From contig CAJTLA010000003.1 in NCBI GenBank assembly GCA_910576985.1, positions 1-49,213 of the forward strand: a stretch of 49,213 nt of DNA, written 5' to 3'. Under the pieces are notes generated by a model, which saw only the letters and a program-made list of their open reading frames with translations, did not search any database and was not told the origin of the DNA. The translations under genes were made by a program, and so were the position numbers. Every line of letters starts with the position of its first letter. Position 1 is the stretch's first letter. This document shows, piece after piece, positions 18,481 to 29,972 of the stretch. Source of the stretch: an uncultured Bacilli bacterium. Lineage in GTDB: Bacteria > Bacillota_I > Bacilli_A > RF39 > UBA660.

Positions 18481-20214
18481 TTACTTTAATACTTTCATTT
18501 TACTTTTCACAAATTGGCAAGCATCATCAATATAAGTTTGCGATTCTAAATCAATCCCAACAAGATTCAATGCTTCCCGAATACTTTTTCGATTTCCAAC
18601 CTTTAAAAATTCAATATATTTCTGACGCATTCCATTTTGATCCAATATCAAATCAAATGCAATTTTATTCGCAATTGCTACTCCTGTGGCATATTGAAAC
18701 ACATAATAAGAAGGATACAAAAAGAAATGAGCAATTTTTGTCCAATTAACACCTACCAAATCATCTATAGTCACATCTTTTCCATAATAAGAGCGAGCCA
18801 AAGACAAATATAACTGATGCAAATAAGTAGCATCCACTCGTTCTTTTTTCCCAATCCGATCAAGTACAGTACTTTCAAATTCTGTAAGCATTGTCTGTGA
18901 AAACAAAGAAGTACAAAAACTTTGAACCATATGTTCTATAATAAATTGTTTTTCTTCCTCTTCAATATTTTGTTCTAACATATAGTGATAAAACAAAGCT
19001 TCGTTCACTTTTGATGCGATTTCTGCTAAAAATAAAGGATATTCAAAATACTCAAACCCATTTTCTTTGGCATAAGAAGTATGAATTGCATGTCCTAGTT
19101 CATGACTTAAAATCCGAACAGAATCTATTTTTTCTTTATATTGTAACATAGTATAAGGAACACCACTATAAGTAATACAACTAAAAGAATCTTTTCGTTT
19201 CGTTTTACTCAAAGTAAGATCTAACCATCCATTCAAAAAAGCCTCTTCCAATCTTTTTTGATAATCAGGACCTAAAATACCTGTCATATTATGAATAATC
19301 GTTTGCGCTTCTTCTAAAGAAAAATCTCTTTGGAAACCTGAAACACTTGTTTTATTCATATCATACAAGTGATATTCCTTTACGCCCAAACGTTCCTTTT
19401 TGAAAGAATAAAATTGGTGCTGGATCTCCAAATTTTTTTTCACAGAAGAAATTAAATTAGAAACAATATCTGATGGCAAAGAATCTTGAAATAAATGAGC
19501 CTCCAAAATAGAAGAAAAACCTCTACATTGCTCTAATCTAAGTTCTGCTTTTAACTTACGATAATAAATCGTAGACAATGTATTTTCAAACCCTTGATAA
19601 GTCTTCATTGTTTGAAAAAAACTACGAGCTCGGACTTCTTGATCATCACAATCCGAAAGCTTTTGCATTACCATAGGAGTCGCTTTTACAATGTTTCCCT
19701 CTTCATCTTCTATTTCCCCAAAATCCAAGTCCCTCCTAACCAAGGATTGATAAATTTCTTTTAACATATTCAACTGATCTTGAAGACCATAATATTCATC
19801 TTGATTCAAAATAGGATGTTCCATATCTTGAAATAACAAATCAAAATACCTTTGATAATAAGGATTTTTTTCTAAAAACTGCATCACTAACTGAGAATGC
19901 TCCTTCATTCTTTGAACAAATAAAGTATCTATTTTTTGAGTTTCAGTATATTGTGCTAAAGCAATTTCAAACATTTCTTTGGCATCCCAATTTTCAGAAT
20001 CTAAATCTAACATCCTTTTAGGATAACAATAAATCGTTTCTATTTGTTGATTCATCTCTATTTTATGTCTTAAAACTGTTTCTATTGATTCTATAGAATT
20101 GCAATGTTCTAACTCTATTTCCAATTGATGAATCAGCAAATCTAGTTGTTCTTTCCTCTGTTGCCATACTTCTTTACTATCACATAAATAATTTAAATCC
20201 CACGTGTTTCTCAT
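18481..20214 (-). CDS. pepF: M3B-family oligoendopeptidase F-like metallopeptidase
   Basis: HELGHAIH zinc motif. Size about 577 aa. 4-nt overlap with gltX suggests translational coupling. Confidence 0.75.
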   Translation of the reverse strand: MRNTWDLNYLCDSKEVWQQRKEQLDLLIHQLEIELEHCNSIESIETVLRHKIEMNQQIETIYCYPKRMLDLDSENWDAKEMFEIALAQYTETQKIDTLFVQRMKEHSQLVMQFLEKNPYYQRYFDLLFQDMEHPILNQDEYYGLQDQLNMLKEIYQSLVRRDLDFGEIEDEEGNIVKATPMVMQKLSDCDDQEVRARSFFQTMKTYQGFENTLSTIYYRKLKAELRLEQCRGFSSILEAHLFQDSLPSDIVSNLISSVKKNLEIQHQFYSFKKERLGVKEYHLYDMNKTSVSGFQRDFSLEEAQTIIHNMTGILGPDYQKRLEEAFLNGWLDLTLSKTKRKDSFSCITYSGVPYTMLQYKEKIDSVRILSHELGHAIHTSYAKENGFEYFEYPLFLAEIASKVNEALFYHYMLEQNIEEEEKQFIIEHMVQSFCTSLFSQTMLTEFESTVLDRIGKKERVDATYLHQLYLSLARSYYGKDVTIDDLVGVNWTKIAHFFLYPSYYVFQYATGVAIANKIAFDLILDQNGMRQKYIEFLKVGNRKSIREALNLVGIDLESQTYIDDACQFVKSKMKVLK

Positions 20215-21863
20215 TTTAAATAATTCAACCTTTCTAAAATACGTTTTTTTCCTAACAGTCTTAAAATTTCATACAAATCTGGTGTCTGAGCTTTTGAAGT
20301 AATCGAAACACGAATCACAGTACTAATATCTGCAACATTGCCCTTATAAGAATCAGGATTCAACTTATATTCTTTCATATCTGGAGAGTATCCAAGCTCT
20401 GAAGACAACAATTTGATCTTATGAAACCAAACCTCCTTATCATCAGATTCATCATAATAATTTTCAAAATAAGTAGTCACAATATGTTTGATTTCTTCAG
20501 GATCATTCACCTTTCCATATTCATAATCGACATCATGAAAATATTCATCATAGAAATACCAAACTTCTTTTTTCACGTCTTTCCAACTAGAATAATCTTT
20601 TCTTGGCTTTTTTTGTTCTCTTTCAATATTAAAAATCGCAATCGAATAATCTGGATATTTTTCTAAAATAGACGCAAATTCTAAATCAAATTCTTTTGCA
20701 TAACTAAGAGTTCTTGCATAAACTTCACTTGCTTTTAAACGACTAATATAATTTTTAGAAATATTGTATAATTTTTCCAAATCAAATAAGCCTCCACTTG
20801 CACTTACCTTTTTAAAATCAAACTGAAAGTCATCAATTCCCAAAGTTGGATTGGCATCCAACCAAGCTTCAAAATTGGTATTTGCTACTGTCATCAAATA
20901 GCGTAAAACAGCTTCATTAGGGATCCCAGCTTCATGATAATAACTCACTGCTAACTCAGGATCTTTTCGTTTGCTTAATTTTCGTTTATTTTTTGTTTCT
21001 TCATCTACCTTCATGAGTGGTGACAAATGTGCATATTTTGGCGGAGTAAATCCAAATACTTCAAATAATTGGATATGCACTGGCAAAGAAGAAATCCACT
21101 CATCTCCACGAATCACATGAGTCGTTCTCATCAAATAATCATCTACAATATGTGCGAAATGATATGTTGGTAACCCATCTTTTTTAATAATTACAATATC
21201 TAAATCATTTTCTGGAAACTCTATTTTTCCCCTTACCAAATCTTGTATCACCACTTTTTTATCAAAATGTCCTGGTGACTTTAAACGAAGAATATAAGGT
21301 TCCCCATTTTTGATTTTCTCTGCTACCATCTCTAAAGGTAAATCTCTATATTTGGCATATTTTCCATAACAACCAATGCGTTCCTTGCTTGCCTCTTGAA
21401 CTTCTCTAATTTCTTCCAATTCTTCCTTAGTATAAAAACAAGGATAAGCCTTACCTTCTTCAATTAAAGCCTTCGCAAATGTCTGATAAATTTCCTTTCG
21501 TTTGCTTTGTAAATATGGACCATAAGCGCCTGTTTCTTCTGTTTCTGAAATCATTCCCTCATCAAATTCAATGTGAAAGTCTTTCAAATCTCGAATAATT
21601 TCAGTCACACTATTTTCAACCAATCGTTCTTGGTCTGTATCTTCAATCCGAAGAAAACAAATACCATGGGTATCCGTTGCCACTTTTCTTGCTACAAACG
21701 ATGCAAAAAGAGAGCCCAGATGAACAAACCCTGTAGGAGATGGAGCAAAACGAGTCACAACTCCATCCACATTCCTTTCTGGATATAATACTTCATAATC
21801 TTGAATGGTCTTTGTAATATTTGGAAATATTAAATTTGCTAATTCTTTGTTTGTCATTGTCAT
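20211..21863 (-). CDS. gltX: Glutamate--tRNA ligase, long form (~550 aa)
   Basis: RFAPSPTGFVHLGS (HIGH region) and KLSKRK (KMSKS). Preceded by a T-box leader with a GAA specifier. The start is ambiguous among ATGs at 21863 and 21857. Confidence 0.85.
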   Translation of the reverse strand: MTMTNKELANLIFPNITKTIQDYEVLYPERNVDGVVTRFAPSPTGFVHLGSLFASFVARKVATDTHGICFLRIEDTDQERLVENSVTEIIRDLKDFHIEFDEGMISETEETGAYGPYLQSKRKEIYQTFAKALIEEGKAYPCFYTKEELEEIREVQEASKERIGCYGKYAKYRDLPLEMVAEKIKNGEPYILRLKSPGHFDKKVVIQDLVRGKIEFPENDLDIVIIKKDGLPTYHFAHIVDDYLMRTTHVIRGDEWISSLPVHIQLFEVFGFTPPKYAHLSPLMKVDEETKNKRKLSKRKDPELAVSYYHEAGIPNEAVLRYLMTVANTNFEAWLDANPTLGIDDFQFDFKKVSASGGLFDLEKLYNISKNYISRLKASEVYARTLSYAKEFDLEFASILEKYPDYSIAIFNIEREQKKPRKDYSSWKDVKKEVWYFYDEYFHDVDYEYGKVNDPEEIKHIVTTYFENYYDESDDKEVWFHKIKLLSSELGYSPDMKEYKLNPDSYKGNVADISTVIRVSITSKAQTPDLYEILRLLGKKRILERLNYLK

Positions 21864-21884
21864 CAATCCTTTCATAAACAAAAA

Positions 21885-22072
21885 AATATTATGTCATAAG
21901 GGCGAAATTTCGCGGTACCACCTTATTTCATAATATTTCTATTATCTCTTATGTTAACGCCATCAACGAATATAAATATCAAGCTCATAAGTTTCTTCCA
22001 ACCTGTTTTTTCTTCATTCTCACCAAACATGAAGTCTCTTAAAAAAAACATGATTATACTCTTCTTATATCT
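21885..22072 (-). promoter_or_regulatory. T-box riboswitch leader, Glu specifier (GAA)
   Basis: Read on the minus strand. Stem I base is ATAAG/CTTAT. The 5' specifier-loop side is AAGAGUA. An AGAGA bulge precedes the distal stem CUUCAU/AUGAAG, whose loop contains GGUGAGA. The 3' side reads GAA-GAA-A (specifier at 21993-21995). T-box sequence AAGGUGGUACCGCG lies at 21911-21924, followed by a GC hairpin and a U-run. Confidence 0.8.
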
Positions 22073-22092
22073 TTGCTCTTTTACCATATTTT

Positions 22093-24412: not shown

Positions 24413-24488
24413 GCTGGAATAGCTCAGTTGGTAGAGCAACTGTCTCGTAATCAGTAGGTCGCGGGTTCGATTCCTGTTTCCAGCACCA
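24413..24488 (+). tRNA. tRNA-Thr (anticodon CGU)
   Basis: GCUGGAA acceptor, GCUCAGUUGGUAGAGC D-arm, ACUGU-CUCGUAA-UCAGU anticodon arm (U-U at 31-39), encoded CCA. Very similar to B. subtilis tRNA-Thr apart from the anticodon. Confidence 0.85.
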
Positions 24489-24526
24489 GATTTGATTGAT
24501 ACTCGAACTTCGGGTTAAAATAACAA

Positions 24527-24556
24527 AACGACTTATAAAAAAAAGTCGTTTTTTAT
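24527..24556 (+). terminator. Rho-independent terminator after tRNA-Thr(CGU)
   Basis: AACGACTT (24527-24534) / AAGTCGTT (24543-24550) stem followed by TTTT. Confidence 0.65.
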
Positions 24557-24594
24557 GATATTATGAATATGTCAAGAAAACTGGTATAAAATAA

Positions 24595-24810
24595 AAAAAG
24601 GCTTATGCTGATAATCCAGCAGTTTTACAAAGATTAGGGACCTTTGAAATTCCAAAGGTTGATGAAAATGGATATACTCAAATGTCAATGTTGAAAGTAA
24701 TAGAAGCATTTGAAAATTATATGTATGATGGAAATCCTATTCCATTTGAAACAGAAATTACAATATCTGAGAAATATTTAAAAAATCAGGAAAAAGGAAA
24801 AAGTTTCTAA
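24595..24810 (+). pseudogene. Start-less 3' fragment of an unidentified gene
   Basis: A 71-codon open frame begins right after a stop. It has no start codon or RBS near its 5' end: KKAYADNPAVLQRLGTFEIPKVDENGYTQMSMLKVIEAFENYMYDGNPIPFETEITISEKYLKNQEKGKSF*. The composition looks protein-like. Confidence 0.35.
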
Positions 24811-25417: not shown

Positions 25418-26797
25418 TTATCTTCTTGAATCTTCCCTAATAAAAGGTTTTTGAACATTATTTTCTATCAATTTTTTATAAGCTTTTGGCTTTCTATAAG
25501 CATCTCCCAGAGTTTCTTTGCTTCTATATTCTCGAATTTCACTCATATTAAACTTAACAATCTTAACGGCCTCTTGATCGTCCATGATCAAGAGTTCACT
25601 TTCCAACTCTTGCTTATTTATATTTCTTACTATTGGACTATAAGCAGATGACTTACCTCCATGGTTAGCATAGTTTATGGTTACAATTCCTAACATATTT
25701 TCGTATGCTCTTACTTTTAATTGATCTAGTCTTATTTGAGACATATAACAAGCATTTGGTACAATAATTATTTCACTTCCTTGTAACATTAAAACTCTTG
25801 CACTTTCAGGAAAATCCCTATCAAAACAAATCATTGTACCAATTTTTACTGTTCCTCTTGTATATTCTAAATCACAAGTTTTAAATGCTAAACCTGGTTG
25901 AGTATAAGCCTCCATTTTTGAATCCACGGTGTGAACTTTTGAATATTTTAAGATTACTTCCCCATTTTTATTAATTATCATGGCAGTATTCTTTGGCTTA
26001 TCTCCTGTTTCTTCCAAATAAGTAATCGCAATTGACATTTCAAGCTGTTTTGCCAAGTCCATATAGCAACTGATGAATTTATGGTTATCACTAATTGCTT
26101 TACTATTCCAATTATCTATTTTTTCTTGTGATATGTTATCTTGGTCTTTTAAATTTCCCTCAAATAGCATTTCATATCCAGTATTCCACATTTCTGGAAA
26201 CACTGCTATGTCAGCACCCATTTCTTTTGCTTTTTTACAATATTCAATTCCCTTCAACAGATTACCTTCCATTGTACCAGTTGGATTTAATTGTAATATT
26301 GCTATATTAAAAATATCTGATAATGTTTTTATATAATCTAATAATACACTTGATATTTTCATGATATCTTCAATATTATTTATAGTTGGAATATGAATAA
26401 AGGCAACTTTTGTCTTTAATTTGTTTTTTCGTTTAAAATTTAGCGCTCCAAAAAATACATTATTACATAAATAATTTCCAGCATCATTTGAACTCAATAC
26501 TTTAAAATTAGCCTTTTCTAAAAATACCTTTAAAACTCCATAGTAATAGTCTGTAATTAATTTAGTATCTTCTAAAATAGCATTGTTCTCTAAATAAATG
26601 TTTTTAGTCTTTGGTTTTTGCCCAAAAATTAATATATAATCATAATTTTGTAACATTTTATCTTCTATTTGTTTTTTACTAATTTCAAAACTATTTTTTA
26701 AATATAAAATATCTATATTATTTGTATCTTTTATACTATCTAAAAGAATTTTAGCCGAATTTGTGTCCCCTTCAAAACCTGCAATTAAAATTTTCAT
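25418..26797 (-). CDS. Fusion protein: N-terminal pyroglutamyl-peptidase I-like (C15) domain plus C-terminal carbon-nitrogen hydrolase (nitrilase superfamily) domain
   Basis: N-terminal domain: FGQKPKTKNIYLENNA (Glu), DAGNYLCNNVFF (Cys), AFIHIP (His). C-terminal domain: VFPEMW (Glu), KYSKVH (Lys), GTMICFDRDFPE (Cys). RBS AGGAG with an 8-nt spacer. Confidence 0.7.
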   Translation of the reverse strand: MKILIAGFEGDTNSAKILLDSIKDTNNIDILYLKNSFEISKKQIEDKMLQNYDYILIFGQKPKTKNIYLENNAILEDTKLITDYYYGVLKVFLEKANFKVLSSNDAGNYLCNNVFFGALNFKRKNKLKTKVAFIHIPTINNIEDIMKISSVLLDYIKTLSDIFNIAILQLNPTGTMEGNLLKGIEYCKKAKEMGADIAVFPEMWNTGYEMLFEGNLKDQDNISQEKIDNWNSKAISDNHKFISCYMDLAKQLEMSIAITYLEETGDKPKNTAMIINKNGEVILKYSKVHTVDSKMEAYTQPGLAFKTCDLEYTRGTVKIGTMICFDRDFPESARVLMLQGSEIIIVPNACYMSQIRLDQLKVRAYENMLGIVTINYANHGGKSSAYSPIVRNINKQELESELLIMDDQEAVKIVKFNMSEIREYRSKETLGDAYRKPKAYKKLIENNVQKPFIREDSRR

Positions 26798-27101: not shown

Positions 27102-27130
27102 TTGAAAAATTTAAAATTCTACAGTATAAT
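27102..27130 (+). promoter_or_regulatory. Near-consensus sigma-A promoter of a candidate small RNA
   Basis: TTGAAA (27102-27107), 17-nt spacer, TATAAT (27125-27130). Confidence 0.6.
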
Positions 27131-27136
27131 GTATAT

Positions 27137-27250
27137 AGATGAGGAAAACCTCATAAAATAAAAAGTGGAACACTTGACTTATCGCAAAGTTGAGTGTTAG
27201 CCAAGATGGTTAACACCTTAATTCTTCTTGAATTAGGGTGCTATTTTTTT
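27137..27250 (+). ncRNA. Candidate ~115-nt small RNA (putative type I antitoxin), promoter to terminator
   Basis: Three hairpins: 27139-27154 AUGAGG/CCUCAU; 27169-27198 AACACU/AGUGUU; and the terminator at 27214-27240 (CACCUUAAUUC/GAAUUAGGGUG) with a U-run at 27244-27250. No ORF longer than 5 codons. Antisense to the 3' end of the 30-aa peptide gene. Confidence 0.45.
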
Positions 27251-27333
27251 ATTTCGGCTACTAATAAAAGTAGAAGGAACAAAATGAGAATAATGTTATT
27301 TAGAACTTTCAAAATAAAAACTCTTTTTTTCAT
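27241..27333 (-). CDS. 30-aa hydrophobic peptide (candidate type I toxin)
   Basis: MKKRVFILKVLNNIILILFLLLLLVAEIKK. GGGAGG at 27343-27348 lies 9 nt upstream of the ATG. Too short for the supplied ORF track. Confidence 0.45.
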   Translation of the reverse strand: MKKRVFILKVLNNIILILFLLLLLVAEIKK

Positions 27334-27406
27334 AATCTCAAGCCTCCCTTCAATAATAACAATGGAAGTTCGGCAAACACCCAACAAAGTCTTGTATTCC
27401 AAATAT

Positions 27407-27435
27407 ATTATACCACATTACAATGTAGTAGTAAA
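27407..27435 (-). promoter_or_regulatory. Promoter for the 30-aa peptide mRNA
   Basis: TTTACT (27430-27435), 17-nt spacer, TGgTATAAT extended -10 (TATAAT at 27407-27412). Confidence 0.5.
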
Positions 27436-27792
27436 CGAATTATCTCTTATTTTATAAAGAAAAATGCACATTACAGATTTTGAAAAATCTATATCTTGTT
27501 AAAATTCTATTTTAATATCCAAATATTATAGTATAATTCAGTCATGATTAAAGTAGGAAAAACAAATTTCTGAAAGTTCAGTACCTAACCACCAATTAAT
27601 TGAAACATAAACTTTTCAAATAAATAATAGATTAACTAGAATTGTTCACACAAACCATAATTCTAGAATATGAACAAAAAAGTCAATAATCCTTTCTTCT
27701 AGTCAACATCAAAAACATATATTACAGAAAAAATATTGAAAAAAATAAAAAAAAGTAATATAATTTCATAAGAATTAGAAAGAGGGAAAAAA

Positions 27793-29392: not shown

Positions 29393-29466
29393 GCCACAAT
29401 AGTATAATGGTATTACGAAGCCATGGTAAGGCTTTAACGTAGGTCCGATTCCTACTTGTGGCACCA
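29393..29466 (+). tRNA. tRNA-Thr (anticodon GGU)
   Basis: GCCACAA acceptor, AAGCC-AUGGUAA-GGCUU anticodon arm, GUAGG-UCCGAUU-CCUAC T-arm, encoded CCA. Confidence 0.8.
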
Positions 29467-29552
29467 GATGGATAACAAACTCGAACTTTCGAGTAACAAT
29501 TAAAAAAGAGAACATTCAATTTAAAAAATTGGAATATCTCCCTAAATTTAAT

Positions 29553-29590
29553 TAAGCGGACATTTAATTCACTGAAGAATTAAGTGTCAT
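29553..29590 (+). terminator. Rho-independent terminator downstream of tRNA-Thr(GGU)
   Basis: GACATTTAATTC / GAATTAAGTGTC stem (one G-U pair) followed by ATTTTTTT. Confidence 0.55.
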
Positions 29591-29705
29591 TTTTTTATTA
29601 CTACTATCATAATGATAAGAAGAAATAAAATAATACAATCAGTTTTAGAATCCGTATTACAAAAAAATTGGCCATATTTCAGACCAAAAATGATAAATAA
29701 AAATC

Positions 29706-29972
29706 CTACTGATAACGATGACAAGAATGATGTCCATTATGTCTTCCATATCCTGTATGATTTGCAGCATGTGTATGTGGAGCTTGCTGATCACAATTTG
29801 AAAATCCATAACGACAATAAGAACTTTGATTATGTCTATGATAAGTTGATGAATTATCAGAAGTATCATTGACTACTGGATTAGAAACCACATGATTTTG
29901 TGTATAAGCATAAACAGTTCCACCACATAAAAATAAAGCCATAACACCTACAATACATAAATTTTTTTTCAT
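29706..29972 (-). CDS. Small secreted His/Cys-rich protein (88-aa precursor)
   Basis: RBS GGGAGG with a 7-nt spacer. Signal peptide MKKNLCIVGVMALFLCGGTVYA. The mature ~66 aa carry 10 His and 3 Cys (HRHNQSSYC...SNCDQQAPHTHAANHTGYGRHNGHHSCHRYQ). Confidence 0.6.
   Translation of the reverse strand: MKKNLCIVGVMALFLCGGTVYAYTQNHVVSNPVVNDTSDNSSTYHRHNQSSYCRYGFSNCDQQAPHTHAANHTGYGRHNGHHSCHRYQ

Follow-up and report, generated by a model that had tools for sequence, protein, structure and literature searches.

The window analysed here is a 49,213-nt stretch of DNA (~30% GC) from an uncultured Bacilli bacterium (GenBank assembly GCA_910576985.1, contig CAJTLA010000003.1). At positions 27,102 to 27,435 it carries a small gene for a 30-aa hydrophobic peptide, which converges with the gene of a small RNA (sRNA). 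Judged by its sequence, this module probably belongs, as an intact chromosomal copy, to a family of type I toxin–antitoxin (TA)-like systems from gut Clostridia that had not been annotated before. The whole layout is conserved in 80 or more loci from other organisms, and for this reason we regard the arrangement as being beyond chance.

Architecture of the module

The module is made up of the following features.

27102–27130, plus strand: sRNA promoter TTGAAA-17-TATAAT (consensus scan, 11/12)
27137–27252, plus strand: candidate antitoxin sRNA, ~115 nt (fold, homology, covariation)
27139–27154, plus strand: sRNA hairpin H1
27155–27166, plus strand: A-rich linker of the sRNA
27170–27197, plus strand: sRNA hairpin H2
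27198–27212, plus strand: sRNA hairpin H3
27214–27240, plus strand: sRNA terminator stem H4, then T7 (U-run at 27244–27250)
27155–27197, minus strand: predicted terminator of the peptide mRNA, the reverse complement of H2 (hairpin 27170–27197) and then UCCACUUUUUAUUUU (read from sequence and fold)
27241–27333, minus strand: candidate toxin gene for the 30-aa hydrophobic peptide MKKRVFILKVLNNIILILFLLLLLVAEIKK, stop codon TAG (list of open reading frames, ORFs)
27343–27348, minus strand: Shine–Dalgarno (SD) sequence GGGAGG, 9 nt before the ATG (read from sequence)
27364–27368, minus strand: CUUCC in the 5' untranslated region (5'UTR), a candidate anti-SD that pairs with the SD in the minimum free energy (MFE) fold of the window transcript
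27372–27400, minus strand: fold-back box GGAAUACAAGACUUUGUUGGGUGUUUGCC in the 5'UTR, complementary to the transcript's own 3'UTR (27170–27203) and nearly identical to sRNA H2/H3
27407–27435, minus strand: peptide mRNA promoter TTTACT-17-TGgTATAAT (consensus scan, 10/12 plus extended TG)

A sequence-only reading of the window had pointed to this pair, and its elements were all recovered: the mini-ORF running from 27333 to 27241, its SD, the CUUCC motif, the TTTACT promoter and a structured convergent RNA that extends from a promoter to a terminator on the plus strand. The ORF is nested within a 53-aa ORF of the ORF list that starts with TTG. The peptide has a basic N-terminus (MKKR), a hydrophobic core and a KK tail, a design predicted to form a single membrane helix. 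The same design recurs in at least 41 distinct homologues and corresponds to the small hydrophobic peptide of a type I TA system. From its sigma-A-type promoter, the peptide gene is predicted to yield an mRNA of ~245 nt. An 87-aa GTG ORF on the plus strand (27194–27457) runs antisense to the peptide gene; we take it to be spurious.

The RNA from 27137 to 27252 on the plus strand folded into four hairpins with −41.6 kcal/mol (z = −6.9), and 0 of 200 shuffled sequences folded as well. Two terminator-like sites were detected by the terminator scan, compared with 0.2 expected. At sequence level, the sRNA has the properties of an antisense-RNA gene, namely a promoter of its own, a terminator and complementarity to the candidate toxin mRNA.

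This complementarity, which had been put at roughly 100 nt, came to ~95–96 nt (~27155–27250), covering codons 28–30, the stop codon and the 3'UTR of the peptide mRNA. Over its 3' ~95 nt, the sRNA is perfectly complementary to the last three codons and the 3'UTR, and the sRNA terminator lies on the last codons of the ORF. The T-run of that terminator consists of the KK codons (AAAAAA) and part of the Ile codon (27244–27252), and this holds throughout the family. Conversely, the U-tract of the mRNA terminator is the A-rich linker of the sRNA read on the opposite strand, in the window as in the rest of the family, where CCCUUUUUUAUUUU follows the same hairpin. As predicted, then, the end of each gene is built from the sequence of the other gene. 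The terminator hairpins are separate: H4 serves the sRNA and the reverse complement of H2 the mRNA.

The minus-strand transcript of the window folded with z = −4.8; its 5' end paired with its 3' end. We also folded 54 putative full-length mRNAs of the family (~245 nt) with RNAalifold. In the consensus structure, a long-distance helix joins the 5'UTR box (UUGAGUGUCUACC and flanks) to the 3'UTR (GGUAGACAUUCAA) by 13 consecutive pairs, each of which is kept in 49–54 of the 54 mRNAs, with few double changes. Compensatory versions of the box were found in the window (GUUUGCC with GGCUAAC) and, in other forms, in L058, L120 and L121. The SD of the peptide mRNA is predicted to be sequestered, and the two folds disagree about its partner. 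The sequence-only reading had paired the SD with CUUCC, which agrees with the MFE fold of the window; in the consensus fold of the 54 mRNAs, the SD instead pairs with codons 19–21, and the family sequence at the position of CUUCC is CCUCU. The 5'UTR box has almost the same sequence as H2/H3 of the sRNA. The sRNA would therefore bind exactly the partner of the 5' lock of the mRNA.

A family of paired genes

An exact look-up of the window peptide in a collection of 15 billion proteins gave no entry. Ten contigs of the same species (L001–L010) were 99.3–100% identical to the window over the 995-bp spacer, and their only variant in the module was 27419 T>C in the promoter spacer. The 459-aa protein encoded next to the module led to 38 loci of related species, which bear the labels Candidatus Merdicola or uncultured Clostridia/Bacilli, and we searched these for the module. 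One of the 38, a metagenome-assembled genome (MAG) from rabbit gut (L039), contained a homologue (nhmmer E = 4e-10). Its ORF encodes 30 aa (MKTKTFVIKVLKLIAIILFLLIVMIVVIKK) with 50% identity to the window peptide. An SD and the two promoters are present, and compensatory changes were seen in the sRNA terminator and the 5' hairpin.

From these two peptides we derived a codon-aware pattern (ATG AAR, 13 hydrophobic codons with T at position 2, four basic residues encoded by ARR, a stop codon and two flexible gaps) and scanned metagenome contigs. At least 120 stretches matched, and ~90 of those listed were true relatives of the canonical length of 93 nt, originating from human-gut, rodent-gut and other metagenomes. 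A repeated group with 'MKTMEN*L*RS..' (~17 matches) and other out-of-frame or low-complexity matches were discarded as false positives. Together with L039, the family comprises at least 84 intact ORFs and at least 41 distinct peptides, all of 30 aa, such as MKKRNFVIKVLRYITIILFLLIIMIVVIKK and MKNKTFILKFLDFICTILFLVIILIAIIKK, with the consensus MKTKTFIIKVLKLIAIILFLLIIMIVVIKK. All true relatives have AGGAGGTTTGAT about 9 nt upstream (SD consensus AGAGGAGGTTTGAT), the same distance as in the window, and the SD, the promoter and the ~65-nt 5'UTR are conserved besides the ORF. At the position of the peptide promoter, 36% of the family scored at least 10/12 compared with 4% of shuffles. The intact copy in the window (copy 1) is the most divergent member seen, with 50% identity to the rest.

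The variation among these ORFs is of the coding type, in agreement with the reading frame that had been proposed. The hydrophobic codons left free by the pattern (14, 16, 25, 27 and 28) nevertheless have T at position 2 in nearly every case. Across 53 distinct nucleotide sequences, Phe6, Leu11, Ile17 and Leu18 never change although their codons vary synonymously, and Leu11 switches between CTN and TTR. Entropy is highest at third positions (12.2 versus 8.5 bits in NTN codons and 9.9 versus 7.9 bits in free codons). The ratio of non-synonymous to synonymous polymorphism (pN/pS) was 0.33 over codons 2–30 and 0.58 at the free codons. The KK-stop end is under double constraint because it is also the U-tract of the sRNA terminator.

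Among database proteins, some calls (P0009–P0012, P0016 and P0017) read the TGA stop of the family as Trp (..IKKWHL..), so gene callers had applied genetic code 4 to those contigs. A further subfamily (..IILLLSTLLVLAIKK, 33–34 aa) lies beyond the reach of the codon-aware pattern.

A profile search with the sRNA (nhmmer) found 104 copies among the collected loci. At the position of the sRNA promoter, the −35 box of the family reads TTGNAA and the −10 box is TG-extended; 28 of 56 copies scored at least 10/12, a figure that describes the score distribution only. For a 40-sequence alignment (A3), RNAalifold predicted H2 and the H4 terminator, with 97.5% of cells paired. The helices contain 10 double-change pairs compared with 4.0±1.1 in shuffles (0 of 500 shuffles equalled it) and at most five in controls with slid partners. 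We counted 119 G·U cells and 8 A·C cells, and pairing reached 97.5% on the sRNA strand compared with 85.3% on the mRNA strand. The excess of G·U over A·C indicates that selection acts on the plus-strand RNA. H1 is present in every member in compensatory versions (CAAG/CUUG, GAAG/CUUC, GCAAA/UUUGC; GAGG/CCUC in the window), often with a GAAA loop. No Rfam family reached the gathering threshold over the sRNA; in 15 family loci only tRNAs and tmRNA did, and a typical family module gave nothing at E≤10. The best sub-threshold match of the window sRNA, RsaH (24 bits, E = 0.21, threshold 50), was dismissed as chance, a typical member scoring 15 bits.

The two genes are inherited together. Among the matches listed, 76 of the 79 intact ORFs with enough flanking DNA were accompanied by the full convergent sRNA, and the pattern by which they had been found held no sRNA sequence past the last 9 nt of the ORF. 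The 3'-overlapping type I TA layout proposed for the window therefore fits the arrangement here and in L039 and the metagenome relatives, where ORF and antisense RNA are conserved as a pair. By contrast with the ORF, which is almost never without the sRNA, 11 of the 104 sRNA copies had no adjacent ORF at all, and a few more had only a frameshifted or unrelated one (e.g. L060, L062, L112, L080, the L056 type and a second copy in the window). This asymmetry is the one expected of a TA pair. Several modules per locus occur in L058, L059 and L080, and the window holds three copies.

One of the three ORFs without a full sRNA is the intact toxin ORF at 753–845 of L081, where other sequence stands in place of the cognate sRNA region upstream of the terminator. 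Several copies of the MKKRNFVIKVLRY subtype adjoin giant ORFs of 2,500–3,600 aa (L122 388–9693, L123 118–10833, L107 2992–10773 and L085 302–7882). In L123, where no sRNA was detected, 50 nt separate the end of the giant gene from the toxin stop.

Relation to known systems

Five family peptides had no match at E≤10 in Pfam or NCBIfam, which are expected to include models of Fst, holin-like and other type I toxins, and four had none in PADLOC or PHROGs. The proline that we take to be conserved in Fst is missing from the family peptide. The codon-aware pattern gave 0 matches in 2.9 million viral contigs, and the extended 53-aa ORF had no match in the viral contigs or the protein database. Plasmid and phage collections yielded no copy; tblastn searches with family peptides in 50,697 phage records and in plasmids also found nothing, its power being low with short peptides and a low-complexity filter. 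Among 5.8 billion proteins, only ~20 calls belonged to the family, and these were unnamed and mis-extended. A full-text literature search for the peptide strings retrieved no paper. We conclude that the module probably represents a new family of a known kind, type I TA, as the lack of an obvious Fst signature had already suggested.

T1TAdb lists 24 families, and overlap with the antisense RNA at the 3' side is the rule for type I TAs of Gram-positive bacteria (PMC8594479). TxpA/RatA, BsrG/SR4, BsrE/SR5 and YonT/SR6 of Bacillus subtilis share with the window family the convergent genes, an antisense RNA of ~100–200 nt and a 3' overlap that includes the end of the ORF. They also share the small single-helix toxin and, by analogy, might share decay of the RNase III type and, for SR4, a change at the SD region. 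The family differs from these systems in several ways. Neither its peptide (Pfam, NCBIfam) nor its RNA (Rfam) showed similarity to theirs; at 30 aa the peptide is shorter, its N-terminus is basic and its tail consists of KK only; it lies outside prophages; and its mRNA has a 5'UTR box predicted to pair with the 3'UTR.

Fst/RNAII (par of pAD1) and SprA1/SprA1as resemble the family in their Firmicute origin, a toxin of ~30 aa, convergent genes, back-to-back terminators and an SD locked by an upstream helix. In par, functional pairing takes place at direct repeats (DRa/DRb) in 5' regions outside the overlap, and one bidirectional terminator is shared. The window family differs in its ~95-nt overlap and its two separate terminator hairpins. 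Its repeat is inverted, so that the 5'UTR resembles the sRNA instead of complementing it directly.

The pairs CD0956.2/RCd10, CD2907.1/RCd9 and CD2517.1/RCd8 of Clostridioides difficile are likewise convergent and overlapping, and come from the same class, Clostridia. Their toxins (30–56 aa, unannotated until RNA-seq) have a hydrophobic N-terminus and a Lys-rich C-terminus, and the systems are associated with prophages or CRISPR (PMC6563280). The window family, unlike these, is found in the core chromosome, often after tRNA operons. No similarity to phage-borne toxins of C. difficile was found in the same low-power tblastn search of the phage records, which we assumed to include C. difficile phages.

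For the closed mRNA, the nearest analogues are hok/Sok with its fbi element and aapA1/IsoA1, in which the full-length mRNA is shut by 5'–3' pairing and the SD is buried, as predicted here; the likeness is one of analogy only. Activation presumably needs processing or refolding. Those systems are Gram-negative and unrelated in sequence, and their antisense RNA lies at the 5' side or fully inside the mRNA. The window family has its antisense RNA at the 3' end and, unlike hok with its mok leader ORF, no conserved upstream overlapping ORF. Unlike in hok and aapA1, its antisense RNA would bind exactly the 3' partner of the fold-back.

These likenesses suggest how the module might work. The full-length peptide mRNA would fold back and bury its SD, becoming translationally inert as in hok and aapA1. 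The sRNA, if in excess, would pair along the 3'UTR of the mRNA in an extended duplex, which might lead to RNase III-type cleavage and decay and/or keep the SD closed, as in RatA/txpA and SR4/bsrG. When the level of the sRNA falls, the peptide would be made, insert into the membrane and arrest growth.

Annotation is notorious for overlooking type I TA families, and little is known of them beyond model Firmicutes and Proteobacteria. The present one, from uncultured gut Clostridia, was defined from DNA data; it comes with 80 or more members, a profile of the peptide, an alignment of the sRNA and a structure, and could be added to T1TAdb, Rfam and Pfam and used in MAG annotation. Within ~330 bp, it would join a 3' overlap in the Gram-positive style, a hok-like fold-back in which the antitoxin has the sequence of the 5' lock, and terminators that are mutually reused. 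This compact architecture makes it an attractive model for RNA-based control.

Genomic context and alternative readings

The sequence-only reading had placed the module in a tRNA-Thr islet or prophage remnant that it stabilised or in which it was left over. This part was not borne out. The 66 neighbour proteins of family members, from more than 60 members, were mostly of the housekeeping type (MnmA, topoisomerase I, an aminoacyl-tRNA synthetase, Dus, ScpB, Spo0A, trigger factor, deformylase), with no integrases, no phage enrichment and one IS21 helper, and the phage, plasmid and viral collections had held no copy. In none of 37 relatives were the neighbours of the window module conserved, and neither was its position. 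As read from its sequence, the region around the module is variable, with nothing marking a mobile element.

The actual link is a recurrent location immediately downstream of tRNA operons of many identities. In 16 of ~74 evaluable modules (among the matches listed), a tRNA lies 150–260 nt beyond the toxin stop; about three quarters of the modules, including the intact copy in the window, do not adjoin a tRNA. The linked tRNAs are always on the strand of the sRNA and have nine identities (Lys, Leu, Glu, Gly, Thr, His, Ala, Met and Phe), and their 3' end is mostly 47–81 nt before the sRNA start. Modules directly behind the last tRNA of an operon include those in L050, L059, L063, L086, L099, L105, L109, L127, L153, L155, L159 and L165, among others. 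The loop of the tRNA terminator hairpin (e.g. GGAACTTGAAAAAAGTTCC followed by T5) contains the −35 box of the sRNA, and the antitoxin gene would lie inside the tRNA operon's terminator; a conserved hairpin, ACTCGAAnnTTCGAGT, is often found 3' of the tRNA. The literature searched contained no report of tRNA-linked type I TAs, nor of a recurrent placement after tRNA operons in one fixed orientation.

Since sRNA and tRNA point the same way, we infer that read-through from a strong tRNA promoter adds only antitoxin and never toxin. The oriented placement suggests either a selection rule, by which only read-through in the antitoxin sense is tolerated, or a physiological link to stable-RNA synthesis. 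A far-reaching version of the latter is that the family is coupled to tRNA transcription: read-through or co-transcription would supply antitoxin, and a shutdown of stable-RNA synthesis (starvation, stringent response) would lower it and release the toxin. This would make the family a growth-rate-sensing TA whose antitoxin can be a tRNA 3'-trailer. We regard this idea as speculative and quite unlikely to be correct.

Two decayed copies stand behind tRNAs in the window itself.

29393–29466, plus strand: tRNA-Thr(ggt), directly upstream of copy 2
29467–29700, plus strand: copy 2, decayed and fused to the trailer of tRNA-Thr(ggt) (nhmmer, alignments A2 and A5)
24413–24488, plus strand: tRNA-Thr(cgt), directly upstream of remnant 3
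24489–24605, plus strand: remnant 3 after tRNA-Thr(cgt) (alignment A5; weak nhmmer match, E = 0.19)

Copy 2 was recognized by nhmmer (E = 3e-46) and by the sRNA profile (5.7e-12, model positions 26–123). It kept the post-tRNA hairpin and H2–H4, lost ~70 nt with the promoter and H1, and is now a promoterless part of the tRNA trailer. Its terminator (29559–29588 and T7) is predicted to end the tRNA-Thr(ggt) transcript. The minus-strand toxin is a pseudogene without SD and ATG and with a 1-nt deletion. We had considered that the likeness between the plus-strand terminator of the intact module and the tRNA-Thr(ggt) terminator was a coincidence; the nhmmer match ruled this out, and copy 2 is a real decayed copy. 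Remnant 3 retains only the post-tRNA hairpin, the sRNA promoter embedded in a terminator, H1 and the A-rich linker. It joins an open frame (24601–24810; AYADNPAVLQRLGTFEIPKVDENGY...) that is 5'-truncated and without a start codon, and the junction resembles the scar of a deletion. Complementary halves of a module survive in remnant 3 and copy 2. An 88-aa ORF (29706–29972, minus strand) lies next to copy 2; its N-terminus resembles a signal peptide and its tail is rich in His and Cys (..HRHNQSSYCRYGFSNCDQQAPHTHAANHTGYGRHNGHHSCHRYQ). Where the 5' part of the copy-2 toxin gene would be, the terminator of this ORF (29687–29668) is found instead.

Several observations weigh against a type I TA family. 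The strains of the same species are uninformative on constraint because they are 99.3–100% identical across the spacer. As the retrieval pattern required an ORF of this shape, intactness was partly ascertained, and only the unconstrained codons, the co-occurrence of the sRNA and the match in L039 are independent of it. At the free codons, pN/pS is reduced only moderately. The U-run of the sRNA terminator, and not the peptide, may be the reason why the C-terminal KK is kept. The fold-back helix varies little, which leaves covariation support thin, and it could reflect concerted evolution of the inverted repeat. The mRNA terminator was missed by the terminator scan; a 5-nt spacer separates its hairpin from the U-run.

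Many small membrane proteins of Gram-positive bacteria are not toxic. The peptide could accordingly do something harmless in the membrane, such as modulating a transporter or the envelope, with a cis-antisense sRNA that tunes its level. Conservation of ORF, SD and sRNA also fits such a protein, toxicity being a prediction, and the neighbours are housekeeping genes and not mobile elements. We nevertheless consider this explanation unlikely. The modules occur in multiple copies within loci (L058, L059, L080 and three in the window), decay is frequent and asymmetric with the sRNA outliving the ORF, and the location is patchy and non-syntenic, only one of the 38 related loci having a copy. Moreover, the toxin-typical double lock is predicted, with a 5'–3' fold-back and a buried SD. 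These are hallmarks of selfish TA modules and not of housekeeping small proteins.

The tRNA association and the decayed copies raise another explanation, namely that the unit is a terminator or insulator cassette of tRNA operons and the 30-codon ORF is incidental in AT-rich sequence. Many copies do lie 47–81 nt after a tRNA, with the first post-tRNA hairpin as terminator; copy 2 retains only hairpins and seems to act as the tRNA-Thr(ggt) terminator, and orphan sRNA-like copies exist. This explanation leaves unaccounted for the roughly three quarters of modules, including the intact one in the window, that are away from tRNAs. The ORF lies outside the hairpins and yet keeps its length, its start, a strong SD at a fixed distance, a promoter and a 5'UTR. 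Exactly 30 codons in 41 distinct sequences (among the matches listed) would be unexpected for an incidental ORF, and Leu11 is retained through synonymous switches between CTN and TTR. We therefore rate a cassette of this kind as very improbable.

Hardly credible is a miniature mobile element resembling a miniature inverted-repeat transposable element, in which the 5'UTR box and the H2/H3 region would be the inverted repeats and which would spread downstream of tRNAs without TA function: a ~27-nt inverted repeat does flank the ORF, and the family is multi-copy, patchy and recurrent after tRNAs, but the repeats are internal to the conserved unit with both promoters outside them, no transposase is found among the neighbour proteins, no target-site duplications or defined termini were noticed in the alignments (no explicit search for them was made), and peptides that differ by up to 50% and yet keep the frame fit a selected gene better than recent transposition.

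Two other features of the window were recorded. The 459-aa ORF used to collect the related loci (25418–26797, minus strand) encodes a fusion of a pyroglutamyl-peptidase-like domain (Peptidase_C15, weak) with a CN_hydrolase domain. The fusion is found with 69–86% identity in ~25 related MAGs, never with its neighbours in the window, and more distant relatives lack its N-terminal domain. A T-box leader (21895–22082, minus strand; 101 bits) is located upstream of a 556-aa ORF (20211–21881), between this ORF and a tRNA-Gln.

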